48,448 bases of DNA from Candidatus Aenigmatarchaeota archaeon (lineage in GTDB: Archaea > Aenigmatarchaeota > Aenigmatarchaeia > Aenigmatarchaeales > JAADFI01), in the NCBI GenBank assembly GCA_015521825.1, contig WANL01000001.1:1-48448 (forward strand). Direction: 5' to 3'. Positions 12,682 to 48,448 of this stretch are shown one piece after another. The position numbers and the translations under genes are program-made. The first letter of the stretch is position 1, and the number at the start of each line of letters is the position of its first letter. The notes under the pieces are model-generated. The model searched no databases, had not been told where the DNA came from, and saw only the letters and a list, made by a program, of their open reading frames with translations.

Positions 12682-12682
12682 T

Positions 12683-13482: not shown

Positions 13483-13483
13483 G

Positions 13484-15424: not shown

Positions 15425-15497
15425 ACCCCGCCTGCAGTGGTCAGCATGAGAGCTTCGGGAGCTCTTGACCGCGGTTCAAATCCGCGCGAGCCCACCA
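15399..15497 (+). tRNA. tRNA-Pro (anticodon CGG) with about 23-nt insertion in the D-loop and encoded CCA
   Basis: Hand fold: GGGCTCG TG GTGT AGC[TAGCGGGTAGACCCCGCCTGCAG]TGGTCA GCAT G AGAGC TTCGGGA GCTCT TGAC CGCGG TTCAAAT CCGCG CGAGCCC A CCA. Acceptor, anticodon and T stems are perfect. The D stem uses two G-U pairs. Confidence 0.7.
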
Positions 15498-15721
15498 TAA
15501 ATGGTCTGTGAAAATTCTCGGACCGTCCTCCCGATTCAGCTTCTACCGCGGATGTCGGAGAGAAGCGAAAAATTTAAGTATAATATAGTAACTACTTAAT
15601 AATAGTAAAATTAATCCGGTGGCTAAAATGAAAGAGACCAAGAACACGGACTCGGGATTTGAGCTGCTTACACCCACATCGAGAACGGTCATTTACGTAC
15701 ATATAGTGCCCAACTTGGAGG

Positions 15722-17514: not shown

Positions 17515-18252
17515 TCAAAAAACCTCGGAAATCATTCTGGTGTAGTCGGCTCCCTGAAGCGCGCTCACCAGGTTCCAGAGGACCGGAATTAGGATCACGA
17601 ACAGGAAAATTATAACTAAGGACCTCCCCCGGTTCCTGGCTTCGGCGAATCCGAAGACCGCGCCGGCTCCGAGTCCGCCCAGATGGGAGATGTACGAAAT
17701 TCCAGTCGTCTCCCCGGTGGCCACGGTGTAGAAGAATCCGGCCAGATTGTAGAGAATGTACAGGATCGCAACGAGAACCATGGGAACCGGAACGAGGTAC
17801 GGGTAGAAGACCAGGTCAAGGGGCCGGGTGAACATGGCCGTTCCGAGCAGCCCGAATATAGCTCCGGAAGCCCCGACCGTAGGAATATCCACAGGATAAA
17901 GCCCCAGCTGGGTCATCAGCAGTATCAGAAGGTCTCCGAAAACCGCGGACCCGAAGAACACCAGGAAGAACCTCGCGGTACCGAGTTCGGTCTCAACCGC
18001 CCTTCCGAAAAAGAAAAGCGCGATCATGTTGAGAATCAGGTGCTCCGGACTCGCGTGGAGAAACACCGATGTGAAAAATGTCCAGAACCTGCCGGCGGAA
18101 ACGGCTTCCATGGAAAACCCGTACTGGGAGAACAGGTAGGCCAGACCCGGTCTGCCGAATGCGAAGCTCAGAAGGGACTCGAAAAAGAATACGCCGACGC
18201 ACATCAGGATGACGAGCTTGGTCCCGGGATAGCCCCTACCGTTCTCTTCCAT
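17515..18252 (-). CDS. rhomboid family intramembrane serine protease
   Basis: Contains FLHASPEHLILNM, GASGAIFGLLG (GxSG) and the SHLGG histidine. Multi-TM. Confidence 0.85.
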   Translation of the reverse strand: MEENGRGYPGTKLVILMCVGVFFFESLLSFAFGRPGLAYLFSQYGFSMEAVSAGRFWTFFTSVFLHASPEHLILNMIALFFFGRAVETELGTARFFLVFFGSAVFGDLLILLMTQLGLYPVDIPTVGASGAIFGLLGTAMFTRPLDLVFYPYLVPVPMVLVAILYILYNLAGFFYTVATGETTGISYISHLGGLGAGAVFGFAEARNRGRSLVIIFLFVILIPVLWNLVSALQGADYTRMISEVF

Positions 18253-26422: not shown

Positions 26423-27580
26423 ATGGTGCTCGAAACCGGGATAGAAAAGCTGGACAGGCTTCTCGCCGGGAAGCCGGAAAAGAACAGAAAATTTCTGTTT
26501 TTAACAACCCCCGGTATAGACGCACCGGCCTTCGCACAACAGGTCCTTTTCTCCGGGTTAGAAGCCGGGCTGTCAGGTGTCTACCTGGTCTTCAACAAAC
26601 CCCCGGAAGCCGTGAGGGAAACCATGAAAGAGTACCTCTGGGACGTATCTTCGTTCGAGGAATCAGGAAAGCTGACGTTCGTCGACGGGTTCTCTAAACT
26701 CGCGAATTCTGAAACCGGCGAAAAATTCGTGTGCAATCCGAAGAATCCTGACGAACTGATCAGTGCTACCATGGATGCCCTTAAGTCGGTTGGGGAAACG
26801 AAAATAGTGGTGGTTGACGAGATTTCCAACCTCGTCGATCTGATAGGGACCGAAGAAACCGAGCGCTTCATAGAGAAACTCAATTCCGAATCCTCTGTCC
26901 TGGGAATCTTCACCAACTGGCTCTACCCGGAAGAAACCGTGAACTCCGTTAAGGCGGTTTTCGATGAGATCGTCGAACTCAAAGCCGTGGAGGAAAAGGT
27001 CATCCTCAGAAACTACCTTTACATAGAAGGTAGGGCGGTGCCGTTTAAAATCGCGAAACCCGGCGGAATAAACATATACATTCCGAAAATCCTGGTCACC
27101 GGTCCGTACCACGCCGGAAAGAGCACCATAGTCAAAAACCTGAGCGACAGGTCGGTATCGGTGAACCGTCTCGGAACCACTATAGCCCTGGACCACGGCT
27201 ACGTTGAAATGGAAGGGTTCACCTGCGAACTCTTCGGTACCCCGGGCCAGGAAAGATTCGACTTCATCCTTTCCATACTCGCGAAGGACGTTTTCGGGGT
27301 CATCTTGGTCGTGGATTCAACGCTTCCGGAAAGCTTTCCGAGGGCCAAAAACATGCTTTCCAAGGTCAGAGGATACGGAATTCCCTTCGTGGTGATCGCA
27401 AACAAGCAGGATCTCCCGGAGGCCTTACCGCCCGAGGAGGTCAAAAGGCTCCTCGGAGTAGAGGCCCCGGTAATACCGGGTGTGGCGACAGAGGGCAAAG
27501 GTCTGAGGGAAGCCCTGAAGGAGCTGTTCAAACTCATACTGAAAGGTGGTGAGAATGGGAAAGAAGGAGGAAATAGATAA
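26423..27580 (+). CDS. fusion: degenerate KaiC/RecA-like domain (no Walker A) plus MglA/COG2229-type small GTPase
   Basis: N-terminal half TGIEKLDRLLAG..FLFLTTPGIDAPAF aligns with the neighbouring KaiC-like GIPGLDELLEGG..LLSGGPGTGKTTF but lacks GxxGxGKT. IVVVDEIS is kept. C-terminal half has G1 GPYHAGKST, G3 FGTPGQ and G4 NKQD. Confidence 0.75.
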   Translation: MVLETGIEKLDRLLAGKPEKNRKFLFLTTPGIDAPAFAQQVLFSGLEAGLSGVYLVFNKPPEAVRETMKEYLWDVSSFEESGKLTFVDGFSKLANSETGEKFVCNPKNPDELISATMDALKSVGETKIVVVDEISNLVDLIGTEETERFIEKLNSESSVLGIFTNWLYPEETVNSVKAVFDEIVELKAVEEKVILRNYLYIEGRAVPFKIAKPGGINIYIPKILVTGPYHAGKSTIVKNLSDRSVSVNRLGTTIALDHGYVEMEGFTCELFGTPGQERFDFILSILAKDVFGVILVVDSTLPESFPRAKNMLSKVRGYGIPFVVIANKQDLPEALPPEEVKRLLGVEAPVIPGVATEGKGLREALKELFKLILKGGENGKEGGNR

Positions 27581-27923
27581 CATACTGAAAGAGCTGAACC
27601 AGAGCAGTCCCAGCATAAAAGCCTCCCTGCTCGCCAGGGTTGATGGACTGGTGATACACAGCAGGTTGATGGAAGGGGTGGACGGAAGAAGTCTCGCGGC
27701 GATGACGGCGACAATAGTGGGAACGGCCCAGACGATCTCGAAGGAGCTGGAACAGGGGAAGCTGAACCAGGTGATCGTGGAGAGCGAGAACGGAAAGCTC
27801 GTCTCCATAAACGCCGGTAAGCTCGCGATCCTCAGCTGCCTGGTGGATCCGAACGCCAACCTCGGTTTCGTGCTTCTGGAGATGGGGAAGGCCGCGAAAA
27901 AGCTCGAGGAGATCCTGGAGTAA
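27555..27923 (+). CDS. Roadblock/LC7 (MglB-like) domain protein
   Basis: About 120 aa with ..ASLLARVDGLVIHS..AAMTATIVGTAQTISKEL..VIVESENGKLVSINAGK.. The ATG at 27555 follows GGTGGTGA. Confidence 0.75.
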   Translation: MGKKEEIDNILKELNQSSPSIKASLLARVDGLVIHSRLMEGVDGRSLAAMTATIVGTAQTISKELEQGKLNQVIVESENGKLVSINAGKLAILSCLVDPNANLGFVLLEMGKAAKKLEEILE

Positions 27924-27977
27924 AGTATTTAAAACGTTCGCCCCAAACTTTATGGTAGTAAAGTTAGGGGGGCGAAC

Positions 27978-28346
27978 ATGGTTTCGGAATCCGAACTCAG
28001 GGAGATTCTCGAAGAGTTCGTGAAATCCGCAGGAGTCATAGGCGCGGCCATAGTTTCGAACGAGGGTTTGATGATGTGCTCCCTGTTACCCGAAGACTCG
28101 GATCCCAACCTCGTGGCCGCTATGTCGGCTTCCCTGTTCGGAACTTCCAGGAAGGTCGTGGAGGAACTGAATCTGGGCCCGCTCCAGCAGGCCATAGTCG
28201 AGGCAAGGGAAGGCAAGCTGGTTGCCTGCTCCGCCGGTAAGTACGGAATTCTGGTCTCCCTTGTGCCGCACACGACCAACATCGGCCTTGTGATCCTGGA
28301 ACTCGGGAAAACCAGCGAGAGGATCAGAAGACTTCTGGAAGAGTAA
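27978..28346 (+). CDS. Roadblock/LC7 (MglB-like) domain protein
   Basis: 122 aa with ..GVIGAAIVSNEGLMMCS..AAMSASLFGTSRKVVEEL..AIVEAREGKLVACSAGK.. It is a paralog of the previous gene. Confidence 0.75.
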   Translation: MVSESELREILEEFVKSAGVIGAAIVSNEGLMMCSLLPEDSDPNLVAAMSASLFGTSRKVVEELNLGPLQQAIVEAREGKLVACSAGKYGILVSLVPHTTNIGLVILELGKTSERIRRLLEE

Positions 28347-29027
28347 TCAGATGAAGACCTCTTCCTTCGAAAAGACCTCGATTCCTCCGGGGCCGATTCT
28401 TACCGGGTGGAGTCTGGTGGAGTGGTTCGTGCCCCTCATCTTTAAGATTGAAAGCACCCTTGTGTACATGTTGCCTTCCATGACTCTCCTGAGAACGACG
28501 ATCCCGTCCGACACGAACTCCTCGACCCCGTAGGGTGAAACCGAGTCAGAGCCTTCCGGAATCTCGCAGGAAATTATAGAGGTGGCTCCTGTTTTCTTCA
28601 GTTGCTTCCCCAGTTCCACGAGACCCTTCCTTATCTCCAGGGGGTGCTCCAGGAACATTCCGAGAATCGTGGCCGGATCTATGACTATCCTCCTGGCGTT
28701 CAGCCGGAGAACGTTCTCCTCGATCACGGACCTGAGACTTGAAAAATCGTAAAGGTCCAGGCGGACCACGTCCATTTTTCCGGACTTTATCTGCTTTCCG
28801 ACCTTCCAGCCGAACCTTTCCGAGTTTCTCACGATCTGCTCCGGCTCCTCCTCGAGGGAGATGAAAACACCGGGCTCGCCGGAAAGTGATCCGTGGTAAA
28901 TGTAGGAAAGGCCGAAGGTTGTTTTCCCCGTGCCCGGACCTCCCGACAGGAGGATTAGGGAACCGGAAGGAAAGCCGCCTTCCAAAAGCTCGTCCAGGCC
29001 GGGAATCCCGGTGGAAACCCTTTCCAT
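28347..29027 (-). CDS. single-domain KaiC-like RecA-superfamily ATPase
   Basis: Contains GIPGLDELLEGGFPSGSLILLSGGPGTGKTTFGLSY, Walker B RIVIDP and the C-terminal ILKMRGTNHS..HPVRIGPGGIEV. Confidence 0.85.
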   Translation of the reverse strand: MERVSTGIPGLDELLEGGFPSGSLILLSGGPGTGKTTFGLSYIYHGSLSGEPGVFISLEEEPEQIVRNSERFGWKVGKQIKSGKMDVVRLDLYDFSSLRSVIEENVLRLNARRIVIDPATILGMFLEHPLEIRKGLVELGKQLKKTGATSIISCEIPEGSDSVSPYGVEEFVSDGIVVLRRVMEGNMYTRVLSILKMRGTNHSTRLHPVRIGPGGIEVFSKEEVFI

Positions 29028-29061: not shown

Positions 29062-29409
29062 ATGATGAATCTTTTCGAGCTGATCCTGGTTTACTCTTCC
29101 ATAGGGTTTGCCGTGCTTTCCGTGGTTTTCATCTACCTCTCCCTTAATCTAACCAGGGAAGCGGTCAGAAAGAAAATGCTGGCCTCGATATTCAACCTCA
29201 GATTCAGGCAGTTCGAAAGGTTCTGGAAGTGGGTCTTCCTCCTTCCGTTTATAATAATAATCTCGAGGTCGGTCGAACTGATAAAGGAGATCCAGGGCCT
29301 CGAGTTCATAAACGGGGCCTACAGGATTTTCGACTTCATAATAATATTCATAATTTTCGTCCTCACGATATCCTACTACTTTATCCTGAAAACCTACATG
29401 AAGTCTTAA
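29062..29409 (+). CDS. small three-TM membrane protein, function unknown
   Basis: 115-aa hydrophobic ORF, AT-richer than its surroundings. Confidence 0.4.
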   Translation: MMNLFELILVYSSIGFAVLSVVFIYLSLNLTREAVRKKMLASIFNLRFRQFERFWKWVFLLPFIIIISRSVELIKEIQGLEFINGAYRIFDFIIIFIIFVLTISYYFILKTYMKS

Positions 29410-30203
29410 AGGAGCAGCGTGAGGAGAAGGGCCAGCGGGAACACCGGGCCGTACCTTACCCCGTCCCGAACTGTAACGAACTTCCTGACTCTTTTAAGTC
29501 TCGATACCTCTTCCTCGGTCAGACCTTTTATGTATTTCTTGAACACACCGGCTTCCGGAACGTCCTCACCTATCACATCGCCTTTCTTGAGCCTCGAGAC
29601 CGGTATCCGCCTGTAAAATCCGTAAGCCTCGACCGCCCTGGCGAAGCGAATCGCAAATGGCGACAGGGCCAGGAGGATCCCTACCGCGAGGAACAGCGGA
29701 CTTTCAAGGACGAAGGATGCGAGGCCGAAAGCGGTAAGAAACACCGAAGCTGTGAAGAGATCCTTTCCCCGATTCCTCCTGACCGAAGCTCCGAACTCCC
29801 TCCAGACCCTGGGGTTTTTTCTGGTAACCACAGCGGAATAGACCAGGGAGTAGATACCGCCGACCAGGAAAACATTCAGGAAAAATAGCGGTGTGAACAG
29901 CGGTGTCAGGAAGCCTACGGGCAGGAGAACGCCGATGGCGACGAGGAGCTCGCCGTCCCCGCCTCCCCACGAGCCCGTGTAGTACATCAGAAGACCGAAC
30001 GTCAGGAAAAGGAGTCCGGTACCGGCCGAAAGCAGGAAGGGAAGGGGATCGCCCAGGAGGAAGGACTCGTAAGCGTGGATCCCGAGGCCGAAAATTATCA
30101 TTCCTATCGCGAGGGCATCCAGCATGTCGCTCGTTTTCAGATCGTAAAGGGCGCAGGCCGTACTCCCACCGAGGGCAACGGCCAGCTTGACGGCTTCGAA
30201 CAT
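29406..30203 (-). CDS. A24-family archaeal prepilin/preflagellin peptidase (FlaK/PibD/EppA-like) with C-terminal extension
   Basis: Start re-picked to MFEAVKLAV (ATG at 30203). First catalytic Asp context is ALYDLKTSD and the second is WGGGDGELL (GxGD). Multi-TM. The extra C-terminal part is RIPVSRLKKGDVIGEDV.. Confidence 0.75.
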   Translation of the reverse strand: MFEAVKLAVALGGSTACALYDLKTSDMLDALAIGMIIFGLGIHAYESFLLGDPLPFLLSAGTGLLFLTFGLLMYYTGSWGGGDGELLVAIGVLLPVGFLTPLFTPLFFLNVFLVGGIYSLVYSAVVTRKNPRVWREFGASVRRNRGKDLFTASVFLTAFGLASFVLESPLFLAVGILLALSPFAIRFARAVEAYGFYRRIPVSRLKKGDVIGEDVPEAGVFKKYIKGLTEEEVSRLKRVRKFVTVRDGVRYGPVFPLALLLTLLL

Positions 30204-30207
30204 ATAA

Positions 30208-30948
30208 ATGAAAAGGATTCCTGTTAAATTTAAATATTTCCCGGAACCTCTAAATATTGTGCACGTGGCTGTGATTCTGGACGGAAACAGAAGATTCGCC
30301 AGAAGATTGATGCAAAAGCCGTGGAAGGGCCACGAGTGGGGGGCCAAAAAGGTCAGGTCGCTTCTCGAATGGGGAAGGGAAAAGGGTATCAAAAGGTTCA
30401 CGCTCTACTCCCTGTCGATAGAGAATATTAAAAAAAGACCGAAGAGGGAGCTCGACTACCTTTTCAGGCTTTTCGAAAGGGAATTCCGCGACATCCTGAA
30501 GCCGGACCACGAGGTTCACCGGCACCGGATAAGAATCAGGGTGATAGGAAGGAAGGAACTTCTCCCCGAAACCCTGAGGGACCTGATAGATCGGGTGGAG
30601 TCCGAGACCGAAAGTTACGACGGTTACGAGCTGGTACTCGCCATAGCCTACGGGGGTCAGCAGGAAATAACCGACGCCGCGAAAAAACTGGCTGAAGCCG
30701 TGAAAAACGGTTCGGTTGACCCGGAAAAAATCGACGAAGCCGAGTTCTCCAGGCATCTCTACGCCGCGGACTGTCCGGACATAATTATAAGAACCGGTGG
30801 GGAAAAGAGGCTGAGTAACTTTTTGCTGTGGCAGAGCGCCTACTCCGAGCTTTTCTTCGTGGACAAGATGTGGCCGGAATTCGAGAAGGAGGACTTCGAA
30901 CGAATCCTGGAGGAATTCAGGAAGAGGCAGAGGAGGTTCGGCGGCTGA
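30208..30948 (+). CDS. uppS: undecaprenyl (cis-prenyl) diphosphate synthase
   Basis: Contains HVAVILDGNRRFA, and later AYGGQQEI and RTGGEKRLSNFLLWQSAYSELFF. An alternative GTG start lies at 30259. Confidence 0.9.
   Translation: MKRIPVKFKYFPEPLNIVHVAVILDGNRRFARRLMQKPWKGHEWGAKKVRSLLEWGREKGIKRFTLYSLSIENIKKRPKRELDYLFRLFEREFRDILKPDHEVHRHRIRIRVIGRKELLPETLRDLIDRVESETESYDGYELVLAIAYGGQQEITDAAKKLAEAVKNGSVDPEKIDEAEFSRHLYAADCPDIIIRTGGEKRLSNFLLWQSAYSELFFVDKMWPEFEKEDFERILEEFRKRQRRFGG
30226..30239. promoter_or_regulatory. shared AT-rich TATA-like element between divergent peptidase and uppS genes
   Basis: aaatttaaatattt lies about 23-36 nt from the ATG at 30203 (minus) and about 20-33 nt from the in-frame GTG at 30259 (plus). 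This suggests uppS may really start at 30259. Confidence 0.35.
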
Positions 30949-33592: not shown

Positions 33593-34051
33593 TTAAGAGC
33601 AGGTTAGACCTTCTTCAACCGCACCCAGAGGACCGGCGATTCTCAGCGTCCTCGTGACCTTCGTGTCCCCCGGAGCAGTCTGATAGTTTATGTTCTTGGT
33701 CTCCCCGGTCTTGATTCCGACCGCTGAGAGGCTCGGTGTCGTCTTTGCGGTTATGTCCTCGCCGTCAAGGAACGCCCGAAGGTCTCCTGGTTCGATGTCA
33801 ACGGTTCCGATGTTCCTCAGTGTAAAGTTGATGGCATTGACGTTCGAAACGTTAGTGCACTTACTATTGATTATGATGACCTGCTTTCCCGCCGACTGCT
33901 GGAGCTGCTGTGCCTGCTGACTTCCTCCGGCCTGCATCCCTGTGACCATAGTGGTACTCCAGGCCCAGAGTATTCCCACCAGCGCCACCGCAATCACTAC
34001 GATCATTATCACTGCGATCACTGTCGATATACCTTTGCTGCTTCCCTTCAA
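33593..34051 (-). CDS. archaeal type IV pilin (Pilin_N-type class III signal peptide), 152 aa
   Basis: TTG start 4-5 nt after GAGGTGA. N-terminus is KGSSKGISTVIAVIMIVVIAVALVGIL, followed by a beta-sandwich-like region similar to the stalk of the pilin-lectin proteins. Confidence 0.7.
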   Translation of the reverse strand: MKGSSKGISTVIAVIMIVVIAVALVGILWAWSTTMVTGMQAGGSQQAQQLQQSAGKQVIIINSKCTNVSNVNAINFTLRNIGTVDIEPGDLRAFLDGEDITAKTTPSLSAVGIKTGETKNINYQTAPGDTKVTRTLRIAGPLGAVEEGLTCS

Positions 34052-34211: not shown

Positions 34212-34613
34212 TTATTTCAGGGCTGTCATCAGCGTCTTCACTCCGGTGCAGTTCGTGACGACCCTTACCTGGCTGACATCGGCCCTGTTAACCGGGAGGG
34301 GTTCGGAAATCACGGTTCCCAGAGTACCCGGAGCCACCGAAGAATTCAGAACATCCCTTAGGTGCAGAACGGTTGCGTTCTGGAGCACGACCTCGAACAC
34401 GAATCCCCCGAGCGGCGCACCGCTCACCTCCACGACCGCCTTTATAGAACCGGAATCGTACTTCGGAAAGCCGGATATGAACCTTATCGAAGCATCGCAG
34501 TTCGGTCTTTCCGGGGCCGGAACCTTGGAGGTAAGGGCGGCGAGAAAGGCGGCGAGAATCATGGTGAGAATTATCAAAAACACGGTCATTCCGAGAGGGC
34601 TCATCCCCTTCAT
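34212..34613 (-). CDS. pilin-like protein (class III signal peptide)
   Basis: ATG at 34613 gives MKGMSPLGMTVFLIILTMILAAFLAAL. Confidence 0.55.
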   Translation of the reverse strand: MKGMSPLGMTVFLIILTMILAAFLAALTSKVPAPERPNCDASIRFISGFPKYDSGSIKAVVEVSGAPLGGFVFEVVLQNATVLHLRDVLNSSVAPGTLGTVISEPLPVNRADVSQVRVVTNCTGVKTLMTALK

Positions 34614-34654
34614 CGAAAGCACCTAAAAATTATCTTTTTCGGCGCCATATAAAG

Positions 34655-40151: not shown

Positions 40152-41759
40152 CTACATCCTGGACACGGTTTCTATTCCGAGAAGCCCGAGACCGGTCTCC
40201 AGAACGGTAGAAACGCACCTTACGATCTCCAGCCTCCTTCCCTCGTGCTCCGAGCCGACGACCCTGTGTTTTTCGTAGAATCTGTTAAAAGCATCGGAAA
40301 GGTCGAAGAGGAAGCGGGCGAGACGGTGCGGTTTCAGGTCCTCGGCGGACTTTTTTACGACGGACGGGAACCGGGATATCAGCCTGAGGAGTTCGATCTC
40401 CTCGGGGGCCAGATCCGAGAACTCTAAACCGCCGGGGTCTCCGGCCTTTTCGAGTATGGATTTTGCCCTGACCAGGGTGTAGAGGAGATAGGGACCGGTG
40501 TCTCCCTTCAGCTTCGTCGCCTCCTCCAGGTCGAAGGAAACCGGGGTGTTCGTGTCCATTTTGAGCATCCCGTACTTAAGCGCGGCCAAGGCGACCTTCC
40601 CGGCGGATTCGCTTCCGTACTCAGCCTCCACCTTCTTCCTGAGTGCTTCGGTCACATCGTGATACGTCACGACATTACCCTCCCTCGAGGACATCTTTCC
40701 GGATTTCAGTCTGACGAGCTCGTAGGAAAGGTGGTGACTCTTCGCCGAAAGTTCCGGATCCATCATCTCGAAAATTTTGAACACCTGCTTAAAGTAGAGA
40801 TTCTGCTCAGAGGCAACCACGTGAATACATCGATCTATACCTTCCGAAAACTGGAGTTCGGCCAGCCCCAGTTCCTTCGCCGGGTAAAGGGGGTATCCTT
40901 CCTTCGTGACCAGGACCACGATGCCGAGGTCGAATTCGGTGAGGTCGACCACAACGGCGCCGTCGCTGATTTTCGCGATCCCCCTCCGAAGAAGATCGAG
41001 GGCTATTCTCTTCCCGGGTTCCGCCGTCTGGCTTTCGAAGTAAAGTCTGTCGAACCTCACTCCGAACTCCCGGTAAATGGAGTCGAAGTACTCCAGACTC
41101 CACTCTCTGGTTTTTCTCCAGACCTCAACGGTTTCCGGGTCACCCTCGTACAGGGCCTTGGTTATTCTTTTAACTTCCTCTTCCGGAGCCTTTTTACAGG
41201 CTTCGGTGTAGAGCTTTCCTAACAGCCTTCCCTTCTCAACCGGGTCCTTCGGCTCCGGGAATTCTAGGTTCAGGTACCCCCAGATACACTTTGCCACATG
41301 CGGCCCGATATCGCCCTGGTAATTGGCCCTCAGGACTCTGTTTCCCCTGAACTCGAGAATTCTTGCCACGGCCTCGCCTATGCAGAGGTTCCTGACGTGA
41401 CCTATGTGAAGCTCCTTGTGGGTATTCGCGTGGCAGAATTCCACCATCACCTTTTTTCCTTCGTTTCCCCTCCCGTAAGACGGACCGACGGCCTTCAGAA
41501 GCCGCGGAGCGAATTTCTCCCAGTCGATCCGAAAATTCAGATACGGACCTTCGGAAATGGGGATAACGAACTCCGCCCGGACCGAGGACGCGAGATCCGA
41601 AGCCGCGGAAACCGGATCCGGAGAGAGCCCGAAGCAAGGAAGGCAGAAGTCCCCGTGCGGGCTGCCGGCCGGAAGTTCCCTTACCTCCACATTCTTTCCC
41701 AGGACACGGGAGAGAGTGGAGGATAACTCTGACTTAAGACTGCTCCAGGGGTCGGACAC
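40152..41759 (-). CDS. argS: arginine--tRNA ligase
   Basis: Class I HIGH region CHANTHKELHIGHVRN, a KMSS-like GKMSSREGNVV and the C-terminal DALR anticodon-binding domain. GTG start. Confidence 0.9.
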   Translation of the reverse strand: MSDPWSSLKSELSSTLSRVLGKNVEVRELPAGSPHGDFCLPCFGLSPDPVSAASDLASSVRAEFVIPISEGPYLNFRIDWEKFAPRLLKAVGPSYGRGNEGKKVMVEFCHANTHKELHIGHVRNLCIGEAVARILEFRGNRVLRANYQGDIGPHVAKCIWGYLNLEFPEPKDPVEKGRLLGKLYTEACKKAPEEEVKRITKALYEGDPETVEVWRKTREWSLEYFDSIYREFGVRFDRLYFESQTAEPGKRIALDLLRRGIAKISDGAVVVDLTEFDLGIVVLVTKEGYPLYPAKELGLAELQFSEGIDRCIHVVASEQNLYFKQVFKIFEMMDPELSAKSHHLSYELVRLKSGKMSSREGNVVTYHDVTEALRKKVEAEYGSESAGKVALAALKYGMLKMDTNTPVSFDLEEATKLKGDTGPYLLYTLVRAKSILEKAGDPGGLEFSDLAPEEIELLRLISRFPSVVKKSAEDLKPHRLARFLFDLSDAFNRFYEKHRVVGSEHEGRRLEIVRCVSTVLETGLGLLGIETVSRM

Positions 41760-41763
41760 GGAA

Positions 41764-42339
41764 TCACCTGACGGTTATCTTTATTACCGTGGTGTTCTCG
41801 CTGGACCTGTACCTCACGAGTTCAAGGCTCTTTCCTTTCATGGTGGCGTTGGGCGAGAACTGAATCATGAGGAATCCCTTCTGAACGAGGCTGTAGGTCT
41901 CCTCTCCGGTAGGTGTCCTGACCACCACATCGCCTGAAAGAAGGATCGCATCGGATTCCGGGTACATGAACCTCATCGAATACCTGGTTACCCCGTCGGC
42001 CTCACAGGATTCCCACAGTCTTTTACCGGAGTCGATAGGTCTCCATGGGTATCCGGAGCACACAGGGTACCTGGAAATTATGGTGTAGTAGATTCCGTCC
42101 GGTCTGACCTCGAGGTCCCCGCGGCTGACCGAAAAGACACACCTGTTTCCGGCTCCCGTCCTGGCCGTCTCCAGAATTTTCTGGGCGCATTTAGTGAACT
42201 CGGACTTCACCTTGTCTATCTCGGAAGCGTCGAAGCCGCCCTGAAGGGTGTCGTATGCCCAGGGAGCCGCCACAATCGCGAGGGAAACCAGAACGGAGAA
42301 AATGAGAACCGCCTGCAGGACCGTGGACTGTGCCTTCAT
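41764..42339 (-). CDS. class III signal-peptide (minor-pilin-like) protein, 191 aa
   Basis: N-terminus MKAQSTVLQAVLIFSVLVSLAIVAAP has the same MKAQS leader as the gene at 428-1108. It ends 4 nt before the argS start. Confidence 0.55.
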   Translation of the reverse strand: MKAQSTVLQAVLIFSVLVSLAIVAAPWAYDTLQGGFDASEIDKVKSEFTKCAQKILETARTGAGNRCVFSVSRGDLEVRPDGIYYTIISRYPVCSGYPWRPIDSGKRLWESCEADGVTRYSMRFMYPESDAILLSGDVVVRTPTGEETYSLVQKGFLMIQFSPNATMKGKSLELVRYRSSENTTVIKITVR

Positions 42340-42377
42340 AGTTTATTCTTTCTTACTGTTCTTTAAAAAAGTTTCGG

Positions 42378-44000
42378 TCACTCGAGCGAAACCATTTCCT
42401 TCGGATCGACAGCCTCGGAGAGTACCCTCACGAAGTCGAGAACCATCGGAACCTGACCGAACTGGAACTCCTTCACGTAATACGTGTTGCCGTTATCTAC
42501 GACCGGCTTCGAGTAGTTTATGGGCCCGGTCTGCGGAACCGAACCGATCTTATTACCGTCGAAGTAGAGGGAAATCTCGCTTCCGTCGTAGGTCAGGCCC
42601 AGGAGGTGGAACTTCCCGTCATTTAGGTTAATACTCCCGTCTGCGCACCTGTACTCCGAAGTGTAAACACAGGCCTTGGCCAGGGTTCCGTCACCGTAAA
42701 CCTCGATACCGTAAGCCGGGTTCAGGGAATGAGCCGCCCTGTAAGCGATTCTGACGCCCTCCCACCAGTATCCGGTCTTCTTGACCCGGACGAACAGGGA
42801 AACCCGGTTCGGGGGATCGTGATCCTCGGTTATAACGGTCTTTCCACCCGGCCCAGCCTCGGTTTTGAAAAACCCGGCCGAGACAATATCGTCGTAGCCG
42901 GAGAATTTCATTACCCCGTTTTCAATGACCGGGAGCCAGGGGTACCTCAGCTCGGGTCGATCCGGCTTCTGATCGTACTCGCAGATGAATCCCATACCGT
43001 AGGTGCAGTCGGCATCCGTGAAGTTATCGTTTTTCAATCCGCAGTTGGCCGGCGGAAAACCGACCCCGATCAACCGCTCAGCGGCCGAATCAACGTTATC
43101 GGGTTGTCCGCTTTCCCAGTTGAAGTAGGACGACGGTTCGACCGAAAGCCACTTCCAGTCTCCGGCGGGCTCGTTCGCCGAACCGCTCGGAACGGAATCG
43201 GAGTATGTGAGGTCGTTAGGATCCTGGTACAGACCGATCCAGAGACCGTTGGCCCAGTAGGGCATGGAACTGAGTTCGTCCCAGGAGGAGAACACGGCCA
43301 GGTAGCCTCCGTCGTTTTCGCAGAACTTCTTGGCCGAGACCCAGTCCGGATACAGGTTCGGATCTATTTCGTCCAGGCAGCCGTAGGGATACACGATGTA
43401 GTAGCTCGAACCGTAGTTCAGGGGGTCGAGACTCGAAGACCAGCAGGGTCCATCGACTGCGCGGGCGTCAATGCCGTTAACGGTGTCGTAAACGTAGTAG
43501 CGGTAACCGACCACATTTCCCTGAAAGTCGAGCTCGGGAACGGCCGTCCAGTTGTCGTCGAACTCGAAAAAGGCGACCGAGGAGTCCGAAGGCTTTATCT
43601 TCACGAATCTCTGGCTAACGAAGGATCCGGCCGAAATTGTCATGTCGTGATCCCCGACTCCGAAGTCGTAGAGGTTCGTCAGCTCGGCGTAACCGACCTG
43701 GTTGGGCGGAATGTCCCTGCTGAGAGAGTAATCCACGGGCTTTCCGTCTATGAAGATGTTAAGGGTTCCGTTTCTCACGACTCCGGGGCCGCAGTTTCTC
43801 AGATACACCCTGTTTTTCGCTACCTGGTCTATCCTTAGACAGTACATCTGCTCGGCCTGGGTAGTTATCCTCTCCCCGGATTCCCGCATGGTCTTTCCGG
43901 TAACTCCGAAGATCCAGTTTGCCAGAAGGTAGAGCAGGGCAATTGTTACGATTATCACAAGCGTGACGGCAACCGCGGACGAAATTCCCTTCGCGCTCAC
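42378..44000 (-). CDS. type IV pilin-like protein fused to a C-type lectin domain (QPD type) and a LamG/Laminin_G_3 domain, 540 aa
   Basis: GTG start. N-terminus SAKGISSAVAVTLVIIVTIALLYLL. CTLD region WVSAKKFCENDGGYLAVFSS..LWIGLYQD..WESGQPDN..FTDADC..FICEY. LamG region KFSGYDD..GKFHLLGLTYDGSEISLYFDG. Confidence 0.8.
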   Translation of the reverse strand: MSAKGISSAVAVTLVIIVTIALLYLLANWIFGVTGKTMRESGERITTQAEQMYCLRIDQVAKNRVYLRNCGPGVVRNGTLNIFIDGKPVDYSLSRDIPPNQVGYAELTNLYDFGVGDHDMTISAGSFVSQRFVKIKPSDSSVAFFEFDDNWTAVPELDFQGNVVGYRYYVYDTVNGIDARAVDGPCWSSSLDPLNYGSSYYIVYPYGCLDEIDPNLYPDWVSAKKFCENDGGYLAVFSSWDELSSMPYWANGLWIGLYQDPNDLTYSDSVPSGSANEPAGDWKWLSVEPSSYFNWESGQPDNVDSAAERLIGVGFPPANCGLKNDNFTDADCTYGMGFICEYDQKPDRPELRYPWLPVIENGVMKFSGYDDIVSAGFFKTEAGPGGKTVITEDHDPPNRVSLFVRVKKTGYWWEGVRIAYRAAHSLNPAYGIEVYGDGTLAKACVYTSEYRCADGSINLNDGKFHLLGLTYDGSEISLYFDGNKIGSVPQTGPINYSKPVVDNGNTYYVKEFQFGQVPMVLDFVRVLSEAVDPKEMVSLE

Positions 44001-44033
44001 ACTATAGTTTTACACACTAAGTTACTTAAAGGT

Positions 44034-46208
44034 TTACCTTGTGAGAATGTAGGTCTCGGCGTAGCCTCTGTCGGTCACAACCGCTACCTTGTACCTTTCG
44101 TTCTTTTCGAGGGAGGCGTTTACCGTGAGCGTGAAGCCTCCGTCCGGACCGGTGAGGGTATAATTCCTGTAGAGCCAGGGCGCGTCCTCGGTGCAGTAGA
44201 CAACATCCGGCTTACAGACGAAGAGGGAAACCGGAATGTTCGGAACCGGTGTCATGTTTGAAGAAAGGGCGTAGGCGGAAACCGAAATTATGTAAGGATA
44301 AACGTTCGGAACTATTCTAAAGGAAAGGATGGAGGTTCCGAAAGTGTCGGGATAGCCCGTTGTCTTGACTATTCTCACGTAATAGGTTCCGGGGTCTGCG
44401 GTGAAGGTGAGGGAGGCGTTGCTCCTCGTGTAGTTAACGAGCTCCCAGGTGGAATTGTCCCCGTCAGTGTCTACGAAAATCGTGTAGTTGTCGATGTACT
44501 CGAGCGTGGCCTCCATTTCGGCGGAATCGATGTAAAACGCACCGTTGAATCCGTTGTAGCTCAGGTCGAACCTTATTCTGACCTCGGAGTCCGGTACGCT
44601 AAAGGTCGAGGGATCGAGGTCTATTACAACCGGTCGGAATTCCTTGGAGGAGTTTACAGAAGTTACCTGCCCGGCTTTTGTCCCGTTGACAAAAACGCTT
44701 ATCGAAGTTACGTTGGTCAAAAATCCTGTGCCGTTGTCCGAAAGGAACAGCGTTACTCTGGCGCTCTTCACCCTCACCTGAGAATCCGGATACGCCTTAG
44801 CGACCGGGTTGAAGGGAATCTCGATTCCGTTGAACCGAACCGGCTGGGACATCTCGAAGTACGCGAGCTGGCCCGGTCTGGCCGCTACGGACCAAGCGGT
44901 TCTGACCTCAAGCACACCCCTTCCGGAAACATCGTCCCTAATGCTTTTCATCCCGAGAGTCGACGGGTCCTTAAAACTTTCGTGAATGTTAACGGCAGCG
45001 AACCTCCACTTTTTATCCGCGTAAAGCGGGGTGGAATATCTCTTTTTGTCCGGGTAAAAGTAGGGGTTCCCGAAAAGTTTGAACGCTGAAACCGGGGATT
45101 CCTTCGGAGAGGAGGTCAGGTTCCTGGTGGACGGAAGCGGTGAAATCGTTACGGTCACGTTGGAAGGCACCGTTATATTGTAAACTATAACCTTCGAGCA
45201 CTCGTCTGCACAGGACGGATCGAAACAGTCTATCCTTCCGTCGAAATTGTCGTCTAGTCCGTCCCTGCAGTTCTTTTCCTTCCTGTAGCACCCGACGGTA
45301 TTGTAAACACTCCCTCCCGGAGTCACCGCCCCACACTCCGCGGTGTACCACTCAACACCGAACGGTTTTTTACAACAGTAAGCGTAATTCGGATCGTTCG
45401 GATCCACCGCACAACCTTCGCCATCGGGGCAGGTCTCAGTAGGACTGTAAGATATTCTTACTATTTTCCATTTATTATTCCAGTAGAAGCTGGTGTAACC
45501 TACTCCCGGAGAAGACTGGCTTCCGCCGACAGCGCAGACAGTCCCATCTGGCTCGCCCTCGCAGGCTCTTTCCCTCGGTTTACACTTCCCGTTGACCCAG
45601 GCGCAGGCAGCGGTCTGAAGACACTGCTCGTAAGTGAAATCCGAGCAGTTCACGCGATAGATCCGGAACATTTCTGACTCGGTACACGGAAGCCACTGGT
45701 ACTCAATCCGACCGTCTTCAATTCCGCACGGATAATTTGGATTATAATTCTGCCACCAGTAATCATTGTAATCTGTAATTATATAAACGGGACAATCATT
45801 GTCTCCGGTCCCGAAAACAGTACAGGACTGAGTCACGAAAGTTTTATCCAACCCCCCGTACCTCGCCGTTGTTTTATAAGAAAGCATATTAGCCGGCGCG
45901 CACGGAGCTCCCATTACTTTGTCGATCTCGTATTCACAGTTAGGATCTCTGTGAAAGGATGTTTCAGCTCCCATGGGTTTTTGTAACAAGTAATGAAGGT
46001 AATTTACCTTATTGGGGTCTGTATCCACACACGGATTGGTATACTCACAACACTCTCCGTACGTACAACTGCTAGTAATGTAAGCGCTTCCGTAGTTATC
46101 GTAGCAGTAACCGGAAGTAACCCAGTCACAAACTACGGCATACGAACCTTCGGTGAGTAGGAACAGACCGGTTCCGATGGCAGCCACCAGGAAAATCAAA
46201 GACCTCAT
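44034..46208 (-). CDS. secreted 724-aa protein: Cys-rich N-terminal half, beta-rich C-terminal half
   Basis: Signal peptide MRSLIFLVAAIGTGLFLLTEGSYA. Dozens of Cys lie in the first 340 aa or so, including CRDGLDDNFDGRIDCFDPSC (MopE/TSP3-like metal-binding pattern). Many N-x-S/T sequons. The C-terminus is CarboxypepD_reg-like (YTLTGPDGGFTLTV..YKVAVV). Confidence 0.7.
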   Translation of the reverse strand: MRSLIFLVAAIGTGLFLLTEGSYAVVCDWVTSGYCYDNYGSAYITSSCTYGECCEYTNPCVDTDPNKVNYLHYLLQKPMGAETSFHRDPNCEYEIDKVMGAPCAPANMLSYKTTARYGGLDKTFVTQSCTVFGTGDNDCPVYIITDYNDYWWQNYNPNYPCGIEDGRIEYQWLPCTESEMFRIYRVNCSDFTYEQCLQTAACAWVNGKCKPRERACEGEPDGTVCAVGGSQSSPGVGYTSFYWNNKWKIVRISYSPTETCPDGEGCAVDPNDPNYAYCCKKPFGVEWYTAECGAVTPGGSVYNTVGCYRKEKNCRDGLDDNFDGRIDCFDPSCADECSKVIVYNITVPSNVTVTISPLPSTRNLTSSPKESPVSAFKLFGNPYFYPDKKRYSTPLYADKKWRFAAVNIHESFKDPSTLGMKSIRDDVSGRGVLEVRTAWSVAARPGQLAYFEMSQPVRFNGIEIPFNPVAKAYPDSQVRVKSARVTLFLSDNGTGFLTNVTSISVFVNGTKAGQVTSVNSSKEFRPVVIDLDPSTFSVPDSEVRIRFDLSYNGFNGAFYIDSAEMEATLEYIDNYTIFVDTDGDNSTWELVNYTRSNASLTFTADPGTYYVRIVKTTGYPDTFGTSILSFRIVPNVYPYIISVSAYALSSNMTPVPNIPVSLFVCKPDVVYCTEDAPWLYRNYTLTGPDGGFTLTVNASLEKNERYKVAVVTDRGYAETYILTR

Positions 46209-47905
46209 ATGACCACCCAGGTTTCAGTATCCTTTTTTATTTCTCCCAGCTCCTGAATCTTTCCGGTAGGCGGGATGCAGTAGTAGTATTCCGGCACGCA
46301 CTTCGAAGCCCCGGGAGTGTAAGCAGCGTACGGGCACCATTTACAGCCCTGAGTGTTATCACATACCCTCTTTTTCTCTTCGTCCGTGGTCAGACCTTTT
46401 TCACATGCAGCGCAGTCCCACGCTCCACAACCCCGATCCGGCGGACAAGCCCCGGCCTCCTTACAGCCTATTTGAAAGCCGCACCAGTCGCAGGTGGAGA
46501 AACTCTCGCAGGTCGTCGGGTCCCAGTAATTCTGGCAGCAGTCTTCCGGACAATTCTCCGGAGTCTCGCCATAAGCAGTCTCGCAGATGCCGTTGGGAGT
46601 CCCGGTGAGAGTTCCGGTAGCCGGGTCGTAGCAGGATCCGCACGGCGTGGGCTTACAGGTTCCGGAACACCAGTAACAGCCGGCGTTCTCACAGTCCGTC
46701 TGGGTCTGGCAGTTAACGCAGCTGGAAGCCGTACAGTCGGAAGGAACCGTGCCCGTGGGCTGGCACTTAACGGTTAAACCGGCCGGAAGGGTACACGACT
46801 CCAGCCAGGACTCGCAGTTTATCTTTCTGTCCCGGTAGTAACTCCACCCGTTCGTTTTCGAAGGTCTGCAGGTGAACCTGGTCGGGTCGCTGTTGGTGCA
46901 GGGCGAATCGTCCGTTCCGGTCATGCAGTACAGCCCGTCCGCGCACTCGTCGTTACACTGGCAGACGTCTCCCTCGGTCTTCGCGAACCCGAGGACCTTG
47001 AGGCAGGGATCGCACTTTTCCGTGTCTATCGCGTCCTCGTAACTGCAGATCGGAACGCACTTACCGTTTTCGCACTTGAAATCCGGCGGGCACACGAGCT
47101 TTCCGTAGGAGCACTGCGAATCCCTGGAAGGACAGAAGGCCTCGAGAACGGTCGTGTTGTCGACGCAGTAGTCCGAGATGGTTTGAAGGACTTTGTCTCC
47201 CTCTCCGTACTCGCAGGTACCGGAGGAAAACTTAGTGTCCGGATACAGGCCAGGAACATCTGGAGAATCACTATCGTAGCACCACGGCCACGGTGGGGGT
47301 TCCGACTTTTTACAGAAAAACTTGTGGGTGGAGTTGTAAGATATTTCGTAACCTTCCGGGCATCCGACCTCGACATTAAACCATACCGAAGCGTTTACAG
47401 ACTTTACATTCTTGGGATTTACACAGACGTCCGAGTAAAAAGACCAAGAAGCATCGATTAGCAAAACGGTTCCGGAAGCACCTTTTAAATTATAGGTATA
47501 ATCCGTTGCTGTCCACCTTTCCCATCCTGAAATTAACCCACACCGTTCATTCAGGGGCTGTGGATTTGAAAGACATTCGTAAGTCACCCTGCTCTTAACC
47601 TGTTCATTAACTCCGTTGTTATCCGTGCAGGTAGTTATTCTATGACCAACACCCGTGATTGCGCACCATCCTACGTTATTCTCGTCCCAGTCGCACGGAA
47701 CTTCTACGAGCAATTGACGGGTAAGCGTTGTCTCCTCAGCTGTATCTATAACGTAACAGGTAGCGCCAACGAGAGTTGGATCCGTCGGGGCTCTTTCAAG
47801 AGGGCAGTCGCTCTCCAGACGAACTTGAAGGGTGGTCCCGAAAGCGGGTGGAAACAGTAGTAAAAACCCTATCAGAATTAAAATCAAAGGGGTACCCCTG
47901 TTCAT
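46205..47905 (-). CDS. secreted 566-aa protein, about 10% cysteine, with PSI-like Cys patterns
   Basis: Signal peptide MNRGTPLILILIGFLLLFPPAFG. About 56 Cys by hand count. Contains CTASSCVNCQTQTDCENAGCYWCSGTC and CAACEKG..CDNTQGCKWC (C..C..C...CxWC). ATGA overlap with the downstream 724-aa gene. Confidence 0.7.
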   Translation of the reverse strand: MNRGTPLILILIGFLLLFPPAFGTTLQVRLESDCPLERAPTDPTLVGATCYVIDTAEETTLTRQLLVEVPCDWDENNVGWCAITGVGHRITTCTDNNGVNEQVKSRVTYECLSNPQPLNERCGLISGWERWTATDYTYNLKGASGTVLLIDASWSFYSDVCVNPKNVKSVNASVWFNVEVGCPEGYEISYNSTHKFFCKKSEPPPWPWCYDSDSPDVPGLYPDTKFSSGTCEYGEGDKVLQTISDYCVDNTTVLEAFCPSRDSQCSYGKLVCPPDFKCENGKCVPICSYEDAIDTEKCDPCLKVLGFAKTEGDVCQCNDECADGLYCMTGTDDSPCTNSDPTRFTCRPSKTNGWSYYRDRKINCESWLESCTLPAGLTVKCQPTGTVPSDCTASSCVNCQTQTDCENAGCYWCSGTCKPTPCGSCYDPATGTLTGTPNGICETAYGETPENCPEDCCQNYWDPTTCESFSTCDWCGFQIGCKEAGACPPDRGCGAWDCAACEKGLTTDEEKKRVCDNTQGCKWCPYAAYTPGASKCVPEYYYCIPPTGKIQELGEIKKDTETWVVI

Positions 47906-47910
47906 AGTTT

Positions 47911-48448
47911 TTATTTTACCTCTGTTGTATTTATATATTTTAATTTTAACGAATCCAGAATCCAGGGAAAATCTTCCCGGAGCTTTTCCACGTCCTCGGT
48001 AACGTCGACCGTGATGTTCTTCGGTGGAGAATACTCGTCTATACTTTCATTACTGTATCTAACCCTTTTCTGCAGATCCTCCCAAACACGCTTTACGAAT
48101 CCTTCCTCGTCCCCTGCTAAGAGTTTATCCACCCCTATTCTCCGCAGGTATTCTTCGGTGGTCTCACCCTTTATTTCCGTTTCAACGACCGGCACCTTTC
48201 CGGTCTTGTTACCGATGGTGACATTTTTATATTTCACCTCAATCACGGGGCCGCAGAAAGGTATAAGACCCCTGTGGGTCTGGACGAATGTTTCCCGATC
48301 CACGTAAGGAATGGATTTCTCACCCCTTATCAGCTTTAAGTAAATTTCGGCCAATCTGCTCGGGAATCCGGTCACATGCGAATCTTCGTGGCCAATAATG
48401 TTAATAGTGGTATAGGACTCGTGAGGAGATAAAGCCAAATCTTCATTC
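47911..48448 (-). CDS. hypothetical protein, 5' end outside the window; contains an HExxH-like HEDSH motif
   Basis: The frame stays open to the window edge (the TTG at 48438 is only a track artefact). Reads ..TINIIGHEDSHVTGF.. It ends 5 nt before the 566-aa gene start. Confidence 0.45.
   Translation of the reverse strand, partial: NEDLALSPHESYTTINIIGHEDSHVTGFPSRLAEIYLKLIRGEKSIPYVDRETFVQTHRGLIPFCGPVIEVKYKNVTIGNKTGKVPVVETEIKGETTEEYLRRIGVDKLLAGDEEGFVKRVWEDLQKRVRYSNESIDEYSPPKNITVDVTEDVEKLREDFPWILDSLKLKYINTTEVK

Follow-up and report, generated by a model that had tools for sequence, protein, structure and literature searches.

A putative lectin-bearing modular pilin and a probably separate pair of cysteine-rich secreted proteins encoded head to tail in a Candidatus Aenigmatarchaeota contig

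Results

Gene content of the cluster

The window, i.e., the whole stretch of 48,448 nt analysed here, is one entire contig of a metagenome-assembled genome (MAG) of a Candidatus Aenigmatarchaeota archaeon. It ends in a minus-strand gene cluster ordered as an open reading frame (ORF) with an HExxH motif, cut at its 5' side by the contig end, followed by genes for proteins of 566, 724, 540 and 191 aa, hereafter p566, p724, p540 and p191; the spacers between them are 5, -4 (an ATGA overlap), 33 and 38 nt (Table 1). The original prediction, made by a model from the letters alone, had read these five genes as a single adhesion operon. Its inventory was borne out: the co-orientation and the spacers agree exactly with the ORF calls, the HEDSH motif of the partial protein is present and is an HExxH motif, the signal of p566 is of the Sec type and its "about 56" cysteines were counted as 56, the cysteine-rich N-terminal half of the signal-peptide protein p724 is reflected in 28 of its 30 cysteines lying within the first 400 aa, and the MKAQS-type pilin-like N-terminus of p191 was recovered by a motif scan. 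The word "giant", which had been applied to the two cysteine-rich proteins, does not suit proteins of 566 and 724 aa.

Samples of hydrothermal deposits at Brothers volcano have yielded near-identical contigs (e.g., SAMN12239308/SRR10312490; the sampling site is given in the sample table of PMC9793634), and the window contains archaeal genes, including GatDE, Hjc, archaeal primase, GINS, L44e, S27e and the proteasome alpha subunit.

A pilin-like protein with C-type lectin and LamG domains

The 48 kb were searched in all six frames with a FlaFind-style scan for the motif [KR][GA]/x[ST] followed by an uncharged 20-mer (the slash marks the predicted cleavage site). Exactly five ORFs with a class-III-signal-like N-terminus were found, all on the minus strand and including p540 (KG/ISS) and p191. 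Hydrophobic segments are limited to one each in p566, p724, p540 and p191, located at the N-terminus. Residues 4-133 of p540 are homologous to p152, a stand-alone 152-aa pilin encoded elsewhere in the window (26.5% identity, E 1e-7, tblastn), and according to the alignment the signature of this beta-strand module (Table 1) is kept in p527, a p540 paralogue of the same window, and in P0003, a relative from another MAG. Thus, the archaeal class III (prepilin) N-terminus proposed for the 540-aa protein was recovered by the motif scan and is accompanied by homology of the pilin module.

Both lectin-type signatures that had been noticed in this protein pass the Pfam cut-offs: Lectin_C (PF00059) covers aa 220-341 with 26.9 bits (cut-off 22.6), and Laminin_G_3 (PF13385) covers aa 400-535 with 36.2 bits (cut-off 27.6). 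Over four aligned sequences, W254, I255 and G256 and the cysteines C186, C208, C227, C320, C332 and C340 are invariant, and the disulfide connectivity of the C-type lectin-like domain can be inferred from the cysteine pattern. At positions 299-301 p540 carries QPD, where p527 has EPN, and D329, the Asp at the WND position, is invariant as well. The best PDB sequence match of the lectin region is the carbohydrate-recognition domain (CRD) of collectin placenta 1 (E 5e-4), in whose printed alignment QPD is also seen.

Modelling of p540 with AlphaFold2 (AF2) on a four-sequence alignment gave a mean predicted local distance difference test score (pLDDT) of 50, with only the LamG domain and the pilin module usable. 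In the LamG domain, pLDDT reached 83-95 over aa 430-490 and 60-85 on either side, and its Foldseek matches were laminin LG, agrin, the LamG domain of PAPP-A and BoNT Hc (E about 1e-5). The AlphaFold check that had been proposed therefore succeeded in part: the LamG domain, the pilin module and the C-terminal domain of p724 (see below) gave usable models, but the C-type lectin region and the rest of p724 gave poor ones.

With its class III signal, whole pilin module, C-type lectin domain and LamG domain, the assignment of p540 as a putative lectin pilin is well supported in silico. A word-based search with p540 returned the protein itself, one 98% variant and one 36% relative, and missed the in-window paralogue p527. 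No template/variable repeat pair of the diversity-generating retroelement (DGR) type was found for the C-type lectin domain in the window; a reverse-transcriptase gene was not looked for.

Lectin pilins in other archaea

A key question is whether this design is restricted to the studied contig. The combination of a class III signal with a C-type lectin domain, with or without LamG, was found in three other archaeal lineages (loci P0003/L004, L009 and L029). P0003, from another vent MAG, is 36% identical to p540, matches Lectin_C with 38.4 bits and is encoded between POR/PheRS genes and unrelated genes; a partial orthologue (L057) was the sole locus obtained when Joint Genome Institute (JGI) metagenomes were scanned with the pilin-lectin alignment. 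In a Woesearchaeota MAG, locus L009 encodes a 530-aa protein beginning MRG/ISPLATAVLSLLIV with a QPD-containing Lectin_C domain (57.9 bits) and Laminin_G_3 (69.8 bits). The third lineage, L029, encodes a 317-aa protein, KKG/VSPIVATLLIIG, in which a C-type lectin domain of the QPD type just reaches the Pfam cut-off. No p566- or p724-like neighbours of the lectin pilins were found at the P0003/L004, L009 and L029 loci.

An IMG/VR scan returned generic phage C-type lectin matches only, and over the scans as a whole Lectin_C-type domains were seen in numerous bacterial genomes and phage contigs. The closest DNA-level relatives in the genome scans were bacterial (Planctomycetota, Firmicutes) and archaeal, not eukaryotic. 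To call the domain content of the cluster a vocabulary of eukaryotic adhesion and matrix proteins was thus correct in that C-type lectin-like and LamG domains are present but overstated, since Lectin_C-type domains were also seen in these bacterial genomes and phage contigs, Laminin_G_3 occurs on bacterial pilins and the PSI domain is without profile support (see below).

At L009, the lectin pilin gene is followed by a gene (11907-13889, +) for a 660-aa protein without a Pfam match, the N-terminus of which reads MRG/QFIIIATLLICLLLV (MRG/QFIII); it may be another large class-III-signal protein.

A recurrent pair of cysteine-rich proteins

p566 had no match in Pfam, NCBIfam, PDB (sequence search) or PHROGs, and a word-based search returned only one 97% variant. 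For p724, which contains 15 NxS/T sequons in the whole protein, HMMER found only 36 matches among 1.84 billion (1.84e9) representatives, the orthologue P0034 having an E value of 7.5e-91. The start of p724 overlaps the stop of p566, an ATGA overlap that argues for translational coupling of the two. The proteins show no significant similarity to each other and share only a CxWC-type motif (E 0.11). The resemblance to PSI domains, which had been predicted, consists of this CxWC pattern only: Pfam PF01437 gave no match at E ≤ 1 for p566 or p724, and no PSI-containing PDB chains were obtained at E ≤ 10. The MopE/TSP3-like cysteine repeats were recovered in part. Residues 310-335 of p724 (NCRDGLDDNFDGRIDCFDPSC) form one acidic double-disulfide/MopE-like repeat, and HMMER ties this stretch to proteins with 10-12 such repeats (E about 1e-8), but the repeat is a single copy and scores 24.1 bits against the 41-bit cut-off of acid_disulf_rpt (NF033662). 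A relative of p724, P0037, passes the cut-off of PF11617; p724 itself has no Pfam match. AF2 modelling of p724 from 17 sequences gave a mean pLDDT of 47, with 85-95 in the C-terminal domain and poor values elsewhere, and Foldseek returned generic Ig/FN3/macroglobulin-like matches.

Homologues of both proteins were found side by side at other loci. At L058, a fragment homologous to the C-terminus of p566 (46.7% over 120 aa, E 1.4e-27) is followed after 12 nt by P0034 and then, on the other strand, by ribonucleotide reductase. At L059/L060, a 654-aa cysteine-rich secreted protein matches residues 51-258 of p566 (25% over 272 columns, E 4e-11), and 5 nt past it lies P0035 (1101 aa), which over its final ~100 residues shares 45-47% identity with the C-terminus of p724. 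No pilin genes were found near the cysteine-rich pair at either L058 or L059/L060. By homology, p566 and p724 thus form a conserved gene pair, met again in two further archaeal lineages where no pilin genes accompany it.

The C-terminal domain of p724 (aa ~640-724, window 44037-44291) is a beta-sandwich of ~85-100 aa with two near-invariant cysteines and a GYAET motif; it is shared with P0035, P0038, P0040-P0043 and others, standing at the extreme C-terminus in P0035 and P0038 and in the last residues of the other matches. It is covered by no Pfam family and might serve sorting or anchoring. P0034 has an apparent frameshift (L058 2516-2719): its true C-terminal domain, 62% identical to that of p724, lies in another frame, and the tail of the deposited protein is therefore spurious. 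In L050, an assembly of the same species as the studied contig, a 100-N scaffold gap falls inside p724.

One operon or separate modules

Another important question is whether the five genes form one unit. The co-oriented minus-strand run does not stop with the cluster but passes position 41764 and continues for ~17 kb through argS, the proteasome alpha subunit, Tyw1, primase, GINS, ribosomal proteins, Hjc and GatDE. According to the gene calls, 14 of the 17 junctions of this array are ≤ 41 nt, including those joining unrelated housekeeping genes. Short spacers are therefore the norm in this genome, and spacing is no evidence of shared function. As the cysteine-rich pair recurs without pilins, and lectin-pilin relatives, p527 included, occur without the pair, two separable modules are indicated, and the proposal of a single five-gene adhesion operon is not upheld.

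With respect to the suggested check of five-gene synteny, the order is kept only in relatives with at least about 88% amino-acid identity; the halves are apart at 36-39% identity and in the still more distant L059 pair, and among the loci compared lectin pilins were not linked to p566/p724-like genes at identities of 39% or less. The relative L051 keeps the order 566-724-540-191-argS with 88-95% identity for these genes and 91-97% for neighbouring housekeeping genes; it is too close a relative for the conserved order to be informative.

Promoters were assessed with a simple A/T-box statistic (A/T positions out of 10), for which the background probability of a score ≥ 9/10 is 0.061. Free-standing genes (p527, PEP synthase, L10e, HD, A24) have an A/T-rich box centred ~27 nt before the start codon, a position that suggests leaderless-type promoters. 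In the cluster and its continuation, boxes at ~-27 scored 10/10 for p566 and p724, 9/10 for p191 and argS and 8/10 for p540; internal genes of evident operons scored 7.

Other pilus-related genes of the window

The original prediction overlooked several pilus-related genes of the window: an A24-family prepilin peptidase gene, two genes for small pilins (p152 and p136) and the gene for the lectin-pilin paralogue p527. The last is an isolated gene flanked by a GNAT gene and a divergent KaiC-GTPase gene; its product matches Lectin_C with 51.4 bits and Laminin_G_3 with 35.4 bits, and its N-terminus (KG/VSA) is UpsA-like (E 1.6e-6, below cut-off). For the A24 peptidase, the likely start is M67 at position 30203, and its FlaK-like match (E 5e-10) is below the equivalog cut-off. 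p152 and p136 are encoded in tandem between Hjc and GatD. p152 matches Arch_flagellin (E 1.5e-4) as well as UpsA (E 8.6e-8), ArlG, BasA and TIGR02537 (E 0.045), these last four below cut-off, and of the proteins compared with L051 it has diverged furthest (86.8%). For p191, Pfam gave DUF7289 with an E value of 0.048, below cut-off. The KaiC-like ATPase gene (28347-29027, -) downstream of the A24 peptidase gene was considered as a candidate ArlH and rejected: its product belongs to the generic KaiC family, with ArlH far below cut-off.

Table 1 Genes, protein domains and promoter-like elements of the cluster and related features of the window
Feature	Coordinates	Strand	Characteristics
p540, modular type IV pilin-like protein, 540 aa	42378..44000	-	GTG start; class III signal, pilin module, C-type lectin (QPD), LamG
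p540 aa 1-49, class III signal MSAKG/ISSAVAVTLVIIVTIAL and long N-terminal alpha-helix	43854..44000	-	Motif scan; AF2 helix 5-49
p540 aa 50-140, beta-strand pilin module	43581..43853	-	CxRIDxVxxNRxYLRNCG signature; AF2 strands 55-135, pLDDT 66-80
p540 aa 186-342, long-form C-type lectin-like domain	42975..43445	-	WIG 254, QPD 299-301, D329, six Cys
p540 aa 400-535, LamG/concanavalin-A-like jelly-roll	42396..42803	-	Pfam Laminin_G_3, AF2, Foldseek
p191, orphan pilin-like protein, 191 aa	41764..42339	-	MKA/QSTVLQAVLIFSVLVSLAIVAA / MKA/QSTVLQAVLIFSVLVSLAIV; 4 Cys; no second hydrophobic segment
p566, Sec-signal protein, 566 aa	46205..47905	-	56 Cys (9.9%); three CxWC-type Cys modules, C-terminal third
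p724, Sec-signal protein, 724 aa	44034..46208	-	Cys-rich N-terminal half, beta-sandwich C-terminal half
Partial HExxH ORF, 3' part (178 codons)	47911..48448	-	5' part cut by contig end; HEDSH motif
TATA-like box TTAAAATATATAAATACAAC, p566	47924..47943	-	About 20-38 nt upstream of ATG, inside the 3' end of the upstream ORF; 10/10 A/T
Weaker TATA-like element TAAACCTTTAAGTAACT, p540	44020..44036	-	Upstream of GTG; 8/10 A/T
TATA-like box GAAACTTTTTTAAAGA, p191	42360..42375	-	Upstream of ATG; 9/10 A/T
argS (arginyl-tRNA synthetase)	40152..41759	-	Pfam tRNA-synt_1d, DALR_1; GTG start 4 nt past p191 stop
p527, p540 paralogue, 527 aa	24358..25941	-	36% identity to p540; same architecture, EPN 289, WYD 308
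A24-family prepilin (class III signal) peptidase	29406..30401	-	Peptidase_A24 34.5 bits vs cut-off 26.5; YDLK, WGGGD Asp motifs
p152, small type IV pilin ..KG/ISTVIAVIMIVVIAVAL..	33593..34051	-	Homologous to p540 pilin module
p136/133, small pilin-like ORF MKG/MSPLGMTVFLIILTMIL..	34212..34622	-	Motif scan; called as 133-aa gene in related contigs

Remaining features of the window

The HExxH ORF was lengthened with L050 by 94 codons to 272 aa, its 5' end still being cut; in this strain the motif varies to HEYSH. Neither the 178-aa nor the 272-aa fragment, both lacking the N-terminus, had a significant match in Pfam, NCBIfam or PHROGs, and no homologue was obtained in a word-based search. When these fragments were considered as a zinc metalloprotease, only the motif (HEDSH/HEYSH) was found, without a recognised peptidase family. 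All same-species assemblies that reach this end of the cluster break in the HExxH ORF or the adjoining p566 gene, and breaks in or next to these two genes were seen in L001, L002, L003, L008, L050 and L051; this repetition suggests a repeat or a strain-variable region just upstream of position 48448.

At the other end of the cluster, a GGTGA Shine-Dalgarno-like element and the A/T box of argS (41763-41790, -) lie inside the 3' end of p191, so that argS may be co-transcribed with, or start within, a gene for a pilin-like surface protein. Elsewhere, positions 26423-28346 (+) encode a 385-aa protein in which a KaiC-like domain is fused to an Arf/Ras-type small GTPase; two Roadblock/LC7 (MglB-like) genes come next, so that the whole is an MglA/MglB-style module with an unusual KaiC fusion. 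At 15424-17490 (+), tRNA-Pro(CGG), the only hit of the Rfam and tRNA scans, is followed by a 580-aa ORF that lies in a low-GC stretch (45% vs 54% overall), lacks a Pfam or NCBIfam match and has a 5' end consisting of 60-nt and 117-nt tandem repeats. A gene for a rhomboid-family intramembrane protease (17515-18252, -) shares the window with several genes for exported proteins. PHROGs gave no matches, and there is therefore no sign of viral origin.

Discussion

Comparison with known systems

When the literature was searched for C-type lectin domains on archaeal pilins, no description was found, a passing mention in a Haloquadratum genome paper and DGR papers aside. The original prediction knew of no such archaeal pilus system, and these searches agree with it; the concept itself, however, is known from bacteria, and archaeal precedents for parts of it exist. 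As judged from its domain architecture, p540 is an archaeal counterpart of the bacterial "modular pilins", of which more than 1,200 proteins, including ones with lectin modules, have been surveyed (PMC8179133). Laminin_G_3 (PF13385) is among the modules most commonly grafted onto bacterial pilins; in Streptococcus sanguinis, PilB carries a vWA module and PilC a ConA/LamG-like lectin module (PMC8179133), and PilA-PilC is a glycan-binding complex (PMC9934059). Like these proteins, p540 and p527 have a small N-terminal pilin module with bulky PF13385-bearing cargo behind it, and the non-modular minor pilin PilA partners the lectin pilin in a way that p191 might imitate. Unlike them, the window proteins have the N-termini KG/ISS (p540), KG/VSA (p527) and KA/QST (p191), with neither Glu5 nor the IPR012902 motif; lacking G/F/M-x-x-x-E, they are not members of the bacterial IPR012902 family, and the published survey used the bacterial motif only and does not mention archaea (PMC8179133). 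A further difference is that p540 and p527 carry two lectin-type modules in series, the first being a canonical Lectin_C domain with EPN or QPD.

Among archaeal systems, the Sulfolobus bindosome consists of large class-III-signal sugar-binding proteins (PMC4371748). p540 and p527 are likewise archaeal, several times the size of a pilin and equipped with a prepilin-type signal and a surface domain of a carbohydrate-binding type. Bindosome subunits, however, are substrate-binding proteins of ATP-binding cassette (ABC) transporters that serve uptake, whereas p540 and p527 have lectin-type domains and a full pilin beta module; Pfam gives only Lectin_C and Laminin_G_3 in them, and no bas-like or transporter genes were seen nearby. 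The Ups pili of Sulfolobales (UpsA/UpsB) mediate species-specific recognition of S-layer N-glycans (PMC7064770), and of the curated profiles UpsA comes closest to the N-terminal modules of p540, p527 and p152, though below its cut-off. The scores of 16-32 bits against an equivalog cut-off of 130 mean that these are not Ups orthologues; moreover, UpsA is small with a pocket inside the pilin fold, unlike the appended C-type lectin and LamG domains of p540 and p527. With animal C-type lectin CRDs (collectins, the mannose receptor family), p540 and p527 share the Lectin_C profile, WIG, the long-form disulfide framework and the EPN/QPD spacing, while they differ in the replaced WND Asn and in the fusion to a prokaryotic pilin. 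Acidic double-disulfide/MopE repeats (NF033662, PF11617) resemble aa 310-335 of p724, which differs in its single sub-threshold copy; beyond this repeat, p724 and all of p566 matched no described family.

Proposed organisation and function

We think it reasonably probable that the cluster comprises two separable surface-protein modules that stand head to tail in a long co-directional array, namely, an independent cysteine-rich pair and a modular lectin pilin. The first of these modules, p566 followed by p724, would supply Sec-exported, disulfide-rich and probably N-glycosylated extracellular proteins, possibly a two-subunit component of the cell surface or matrix. The second would consist of p540 and p191. 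The A24 peptidase, encoded 12 kb away, is predicted to cut p540 at KG/ISS and also to process p527 and p191, after which p540 would enter a type IV filament by way of its hydrophobic N-terminal helix and small beta pilin module. Small pilins, for example p152 and p136, would form the shaft of this filament, with the ATPase and platform encoded outside the window. The QPD-type C-type lectin and LamG domains of p540 would face away from the filament, a location at the tip or a sparse distribution over the shaft being the likeliest; the ~400-aa cargo of the lectin pilins makes a tip position probable. These domains could mediate Ca2+-dependent binding of glycans carried by a surface or by another cell. 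If animal C-type lectins are taken as a guide, EPN in p527 and QPD in p540 may provide two sugar specificities, mannose-type and galactose-type, respectively. As a minor pilin, p191 may partner p540 in the way that PilA partners the lectin pilin PilC in S. sanguinis.

Several observations weigh against this interpretation. Curated pilin profiles stay below cut-off throughout (p540 against UpsA, E 0.009), and the suggested Pilin_N check did give an E value of 0.0011 in P0003, but with 20.2 bits against a cut-off of 25.2. The WND Asn is replaced in both lectin pilins (FTD in p540, WYD in p527), so sugar binding by their lectin domains is not assured. In the AF2 model, the C-type lectin region (aa 160-359) has a pLDDT of about 25, and the C-type lectin fold is thus predicted from sequence. 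In p191, the N-terminal helix alone matches the profile of the window's pilin modules (11 bits), and among the loci compared no homologue was found outside close strains. As had been stated, no PilB/FlaI-type ATPase or PilC/FlaJ-type platform was detected among the window ORFs scanned with Pfam. As for the separation of the modules, the order kept in L051 makes some functional link between them in this lineage possible, and the A/T boxes, being a composition-based measure, are only suggestive of individual promoters for the cluster genes. Archaeal operons, moreover, often have internal promoters.

Could the cluster nevertheless be one co-transcribed adhesion operon, in which the cysteine-rich and HExxH proteins work with the lectin pilin as a pilus-displayed cell-contact apparatus? 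The common strand, the short spacers, the export of four of the five products and a gene order maintained among strains and relatives with identities as low as about 88-93% are in line with this reading, but we consider it unlikely, given the cysteine-rich pair without pilins at L058 and L059/L060, the p540 relatives and p527 without the pair, argS at a distance of only 4 nt together with equally short spacers between unrelated housekeeping genes, and the TATA-like boxes before individual genes. There is perhaps a modest chance that p540 and p527 do not enter long pili at all and that the prepilin pathway anchors them as a short pseudopilus or a bindosome-like lectin layer of the envelope, which would capture polysaccharide or attach to S-layer glycans of the same cell. 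In size p540 and p527 exceed the small pilins of the window three- to fourfold, much as bindosome subunits exceed ordinary pilins (PMC4371748), p152 has a weak BasA match, and no dedicated assembly genes stand beside p540 or p527; against this, the two proteins contain no substrate-binding-protein domain and have no ABC sugar transporter beside them, and their full pilin beta module, with its homology to a small pilin, follows the design of filament-located bacterial modular pilins (PMC8179133).

It appears very improbable that the N-termini are merely uncleaved signal-anchor or Sec signals and that p540, p527 and p191 are membrane-tethered or secreted lectin-like proteins outside the type IV system. 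Although no curated pilin profile reaches its cut-off and the window showed neither an ATPase nor a platform gene, the motif with an uncharged 20-mer occurs in just five ORFs over six frames, the homology to the small pilin extends past the helix, an A24 peptidase with its catalytic motifs is encoded in the window, and the same N-terminal design recurs in the lectin proteins of L009 and L029. The ligand may also be something other than a glycan: many C-type lectin-like and LamG domains bind non-sugar ligands, the replaced WND Asn is a Ca2+ ligand in canonical C-type lectins, and the habitat consists of mineral deposits, so the domains might bind protein or the mineral/metal-sulfide surface of a chimney, or be structural, with EPN/QPD as relics. 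We hold this to be unlikely in view of the EPN/QPD motifs, the acidic/amide residues that follow them, the conserved Asp and the disulfide framework, which are kept across distant archaeal lineages and thereby suggest selection on the site; in addition, glycan binding is predicted for the PF13385 modules of bacterial pilins and has been demonstrated for that of PilC (PMC8179133, PMC9934059).

Conclusions

Within the two-module interpretation favoured here, the cysteine-rich pair, together with the conserved beta-sandwich domain at the C-terminus of p724, marks out a family of extracellular archaeal proteins yet to be characterised. That the five genes do not make up a single conserved unit guards against over-reading adjacency where nearly all genes are tightly packed.

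In animals, EPN and QPD form a well-understood specificity code of C-type lectins. A broader and rather doubtful proposal is that several archaeal phyla, including the DPANN Woesearchaeota, graft an EPN/QPD C-type lectin domain, usually with LamG after it, onto pilins for sugar-code recognition of other cells, as in host-symbiont attachment or species-specific vent-biofilm aggregation, with the adjacent p566 and p724 belonging, in the lineage studied here, to the same apparatus, e.g., as a glycosylated ligand or an anchoring matrix. Such sugar-code reading, if true, would parallel in prokaryotes what C-type lectins do in animal recognition. Should the lectin pilins be carried on filaments and bind sugars, they would offer a testable handle on how uncultured vent archaea recognise surfaces and partners, which may include DPANN lineages living attached to hosts, and the modular pilin principle would extend from bacteria to archaea.

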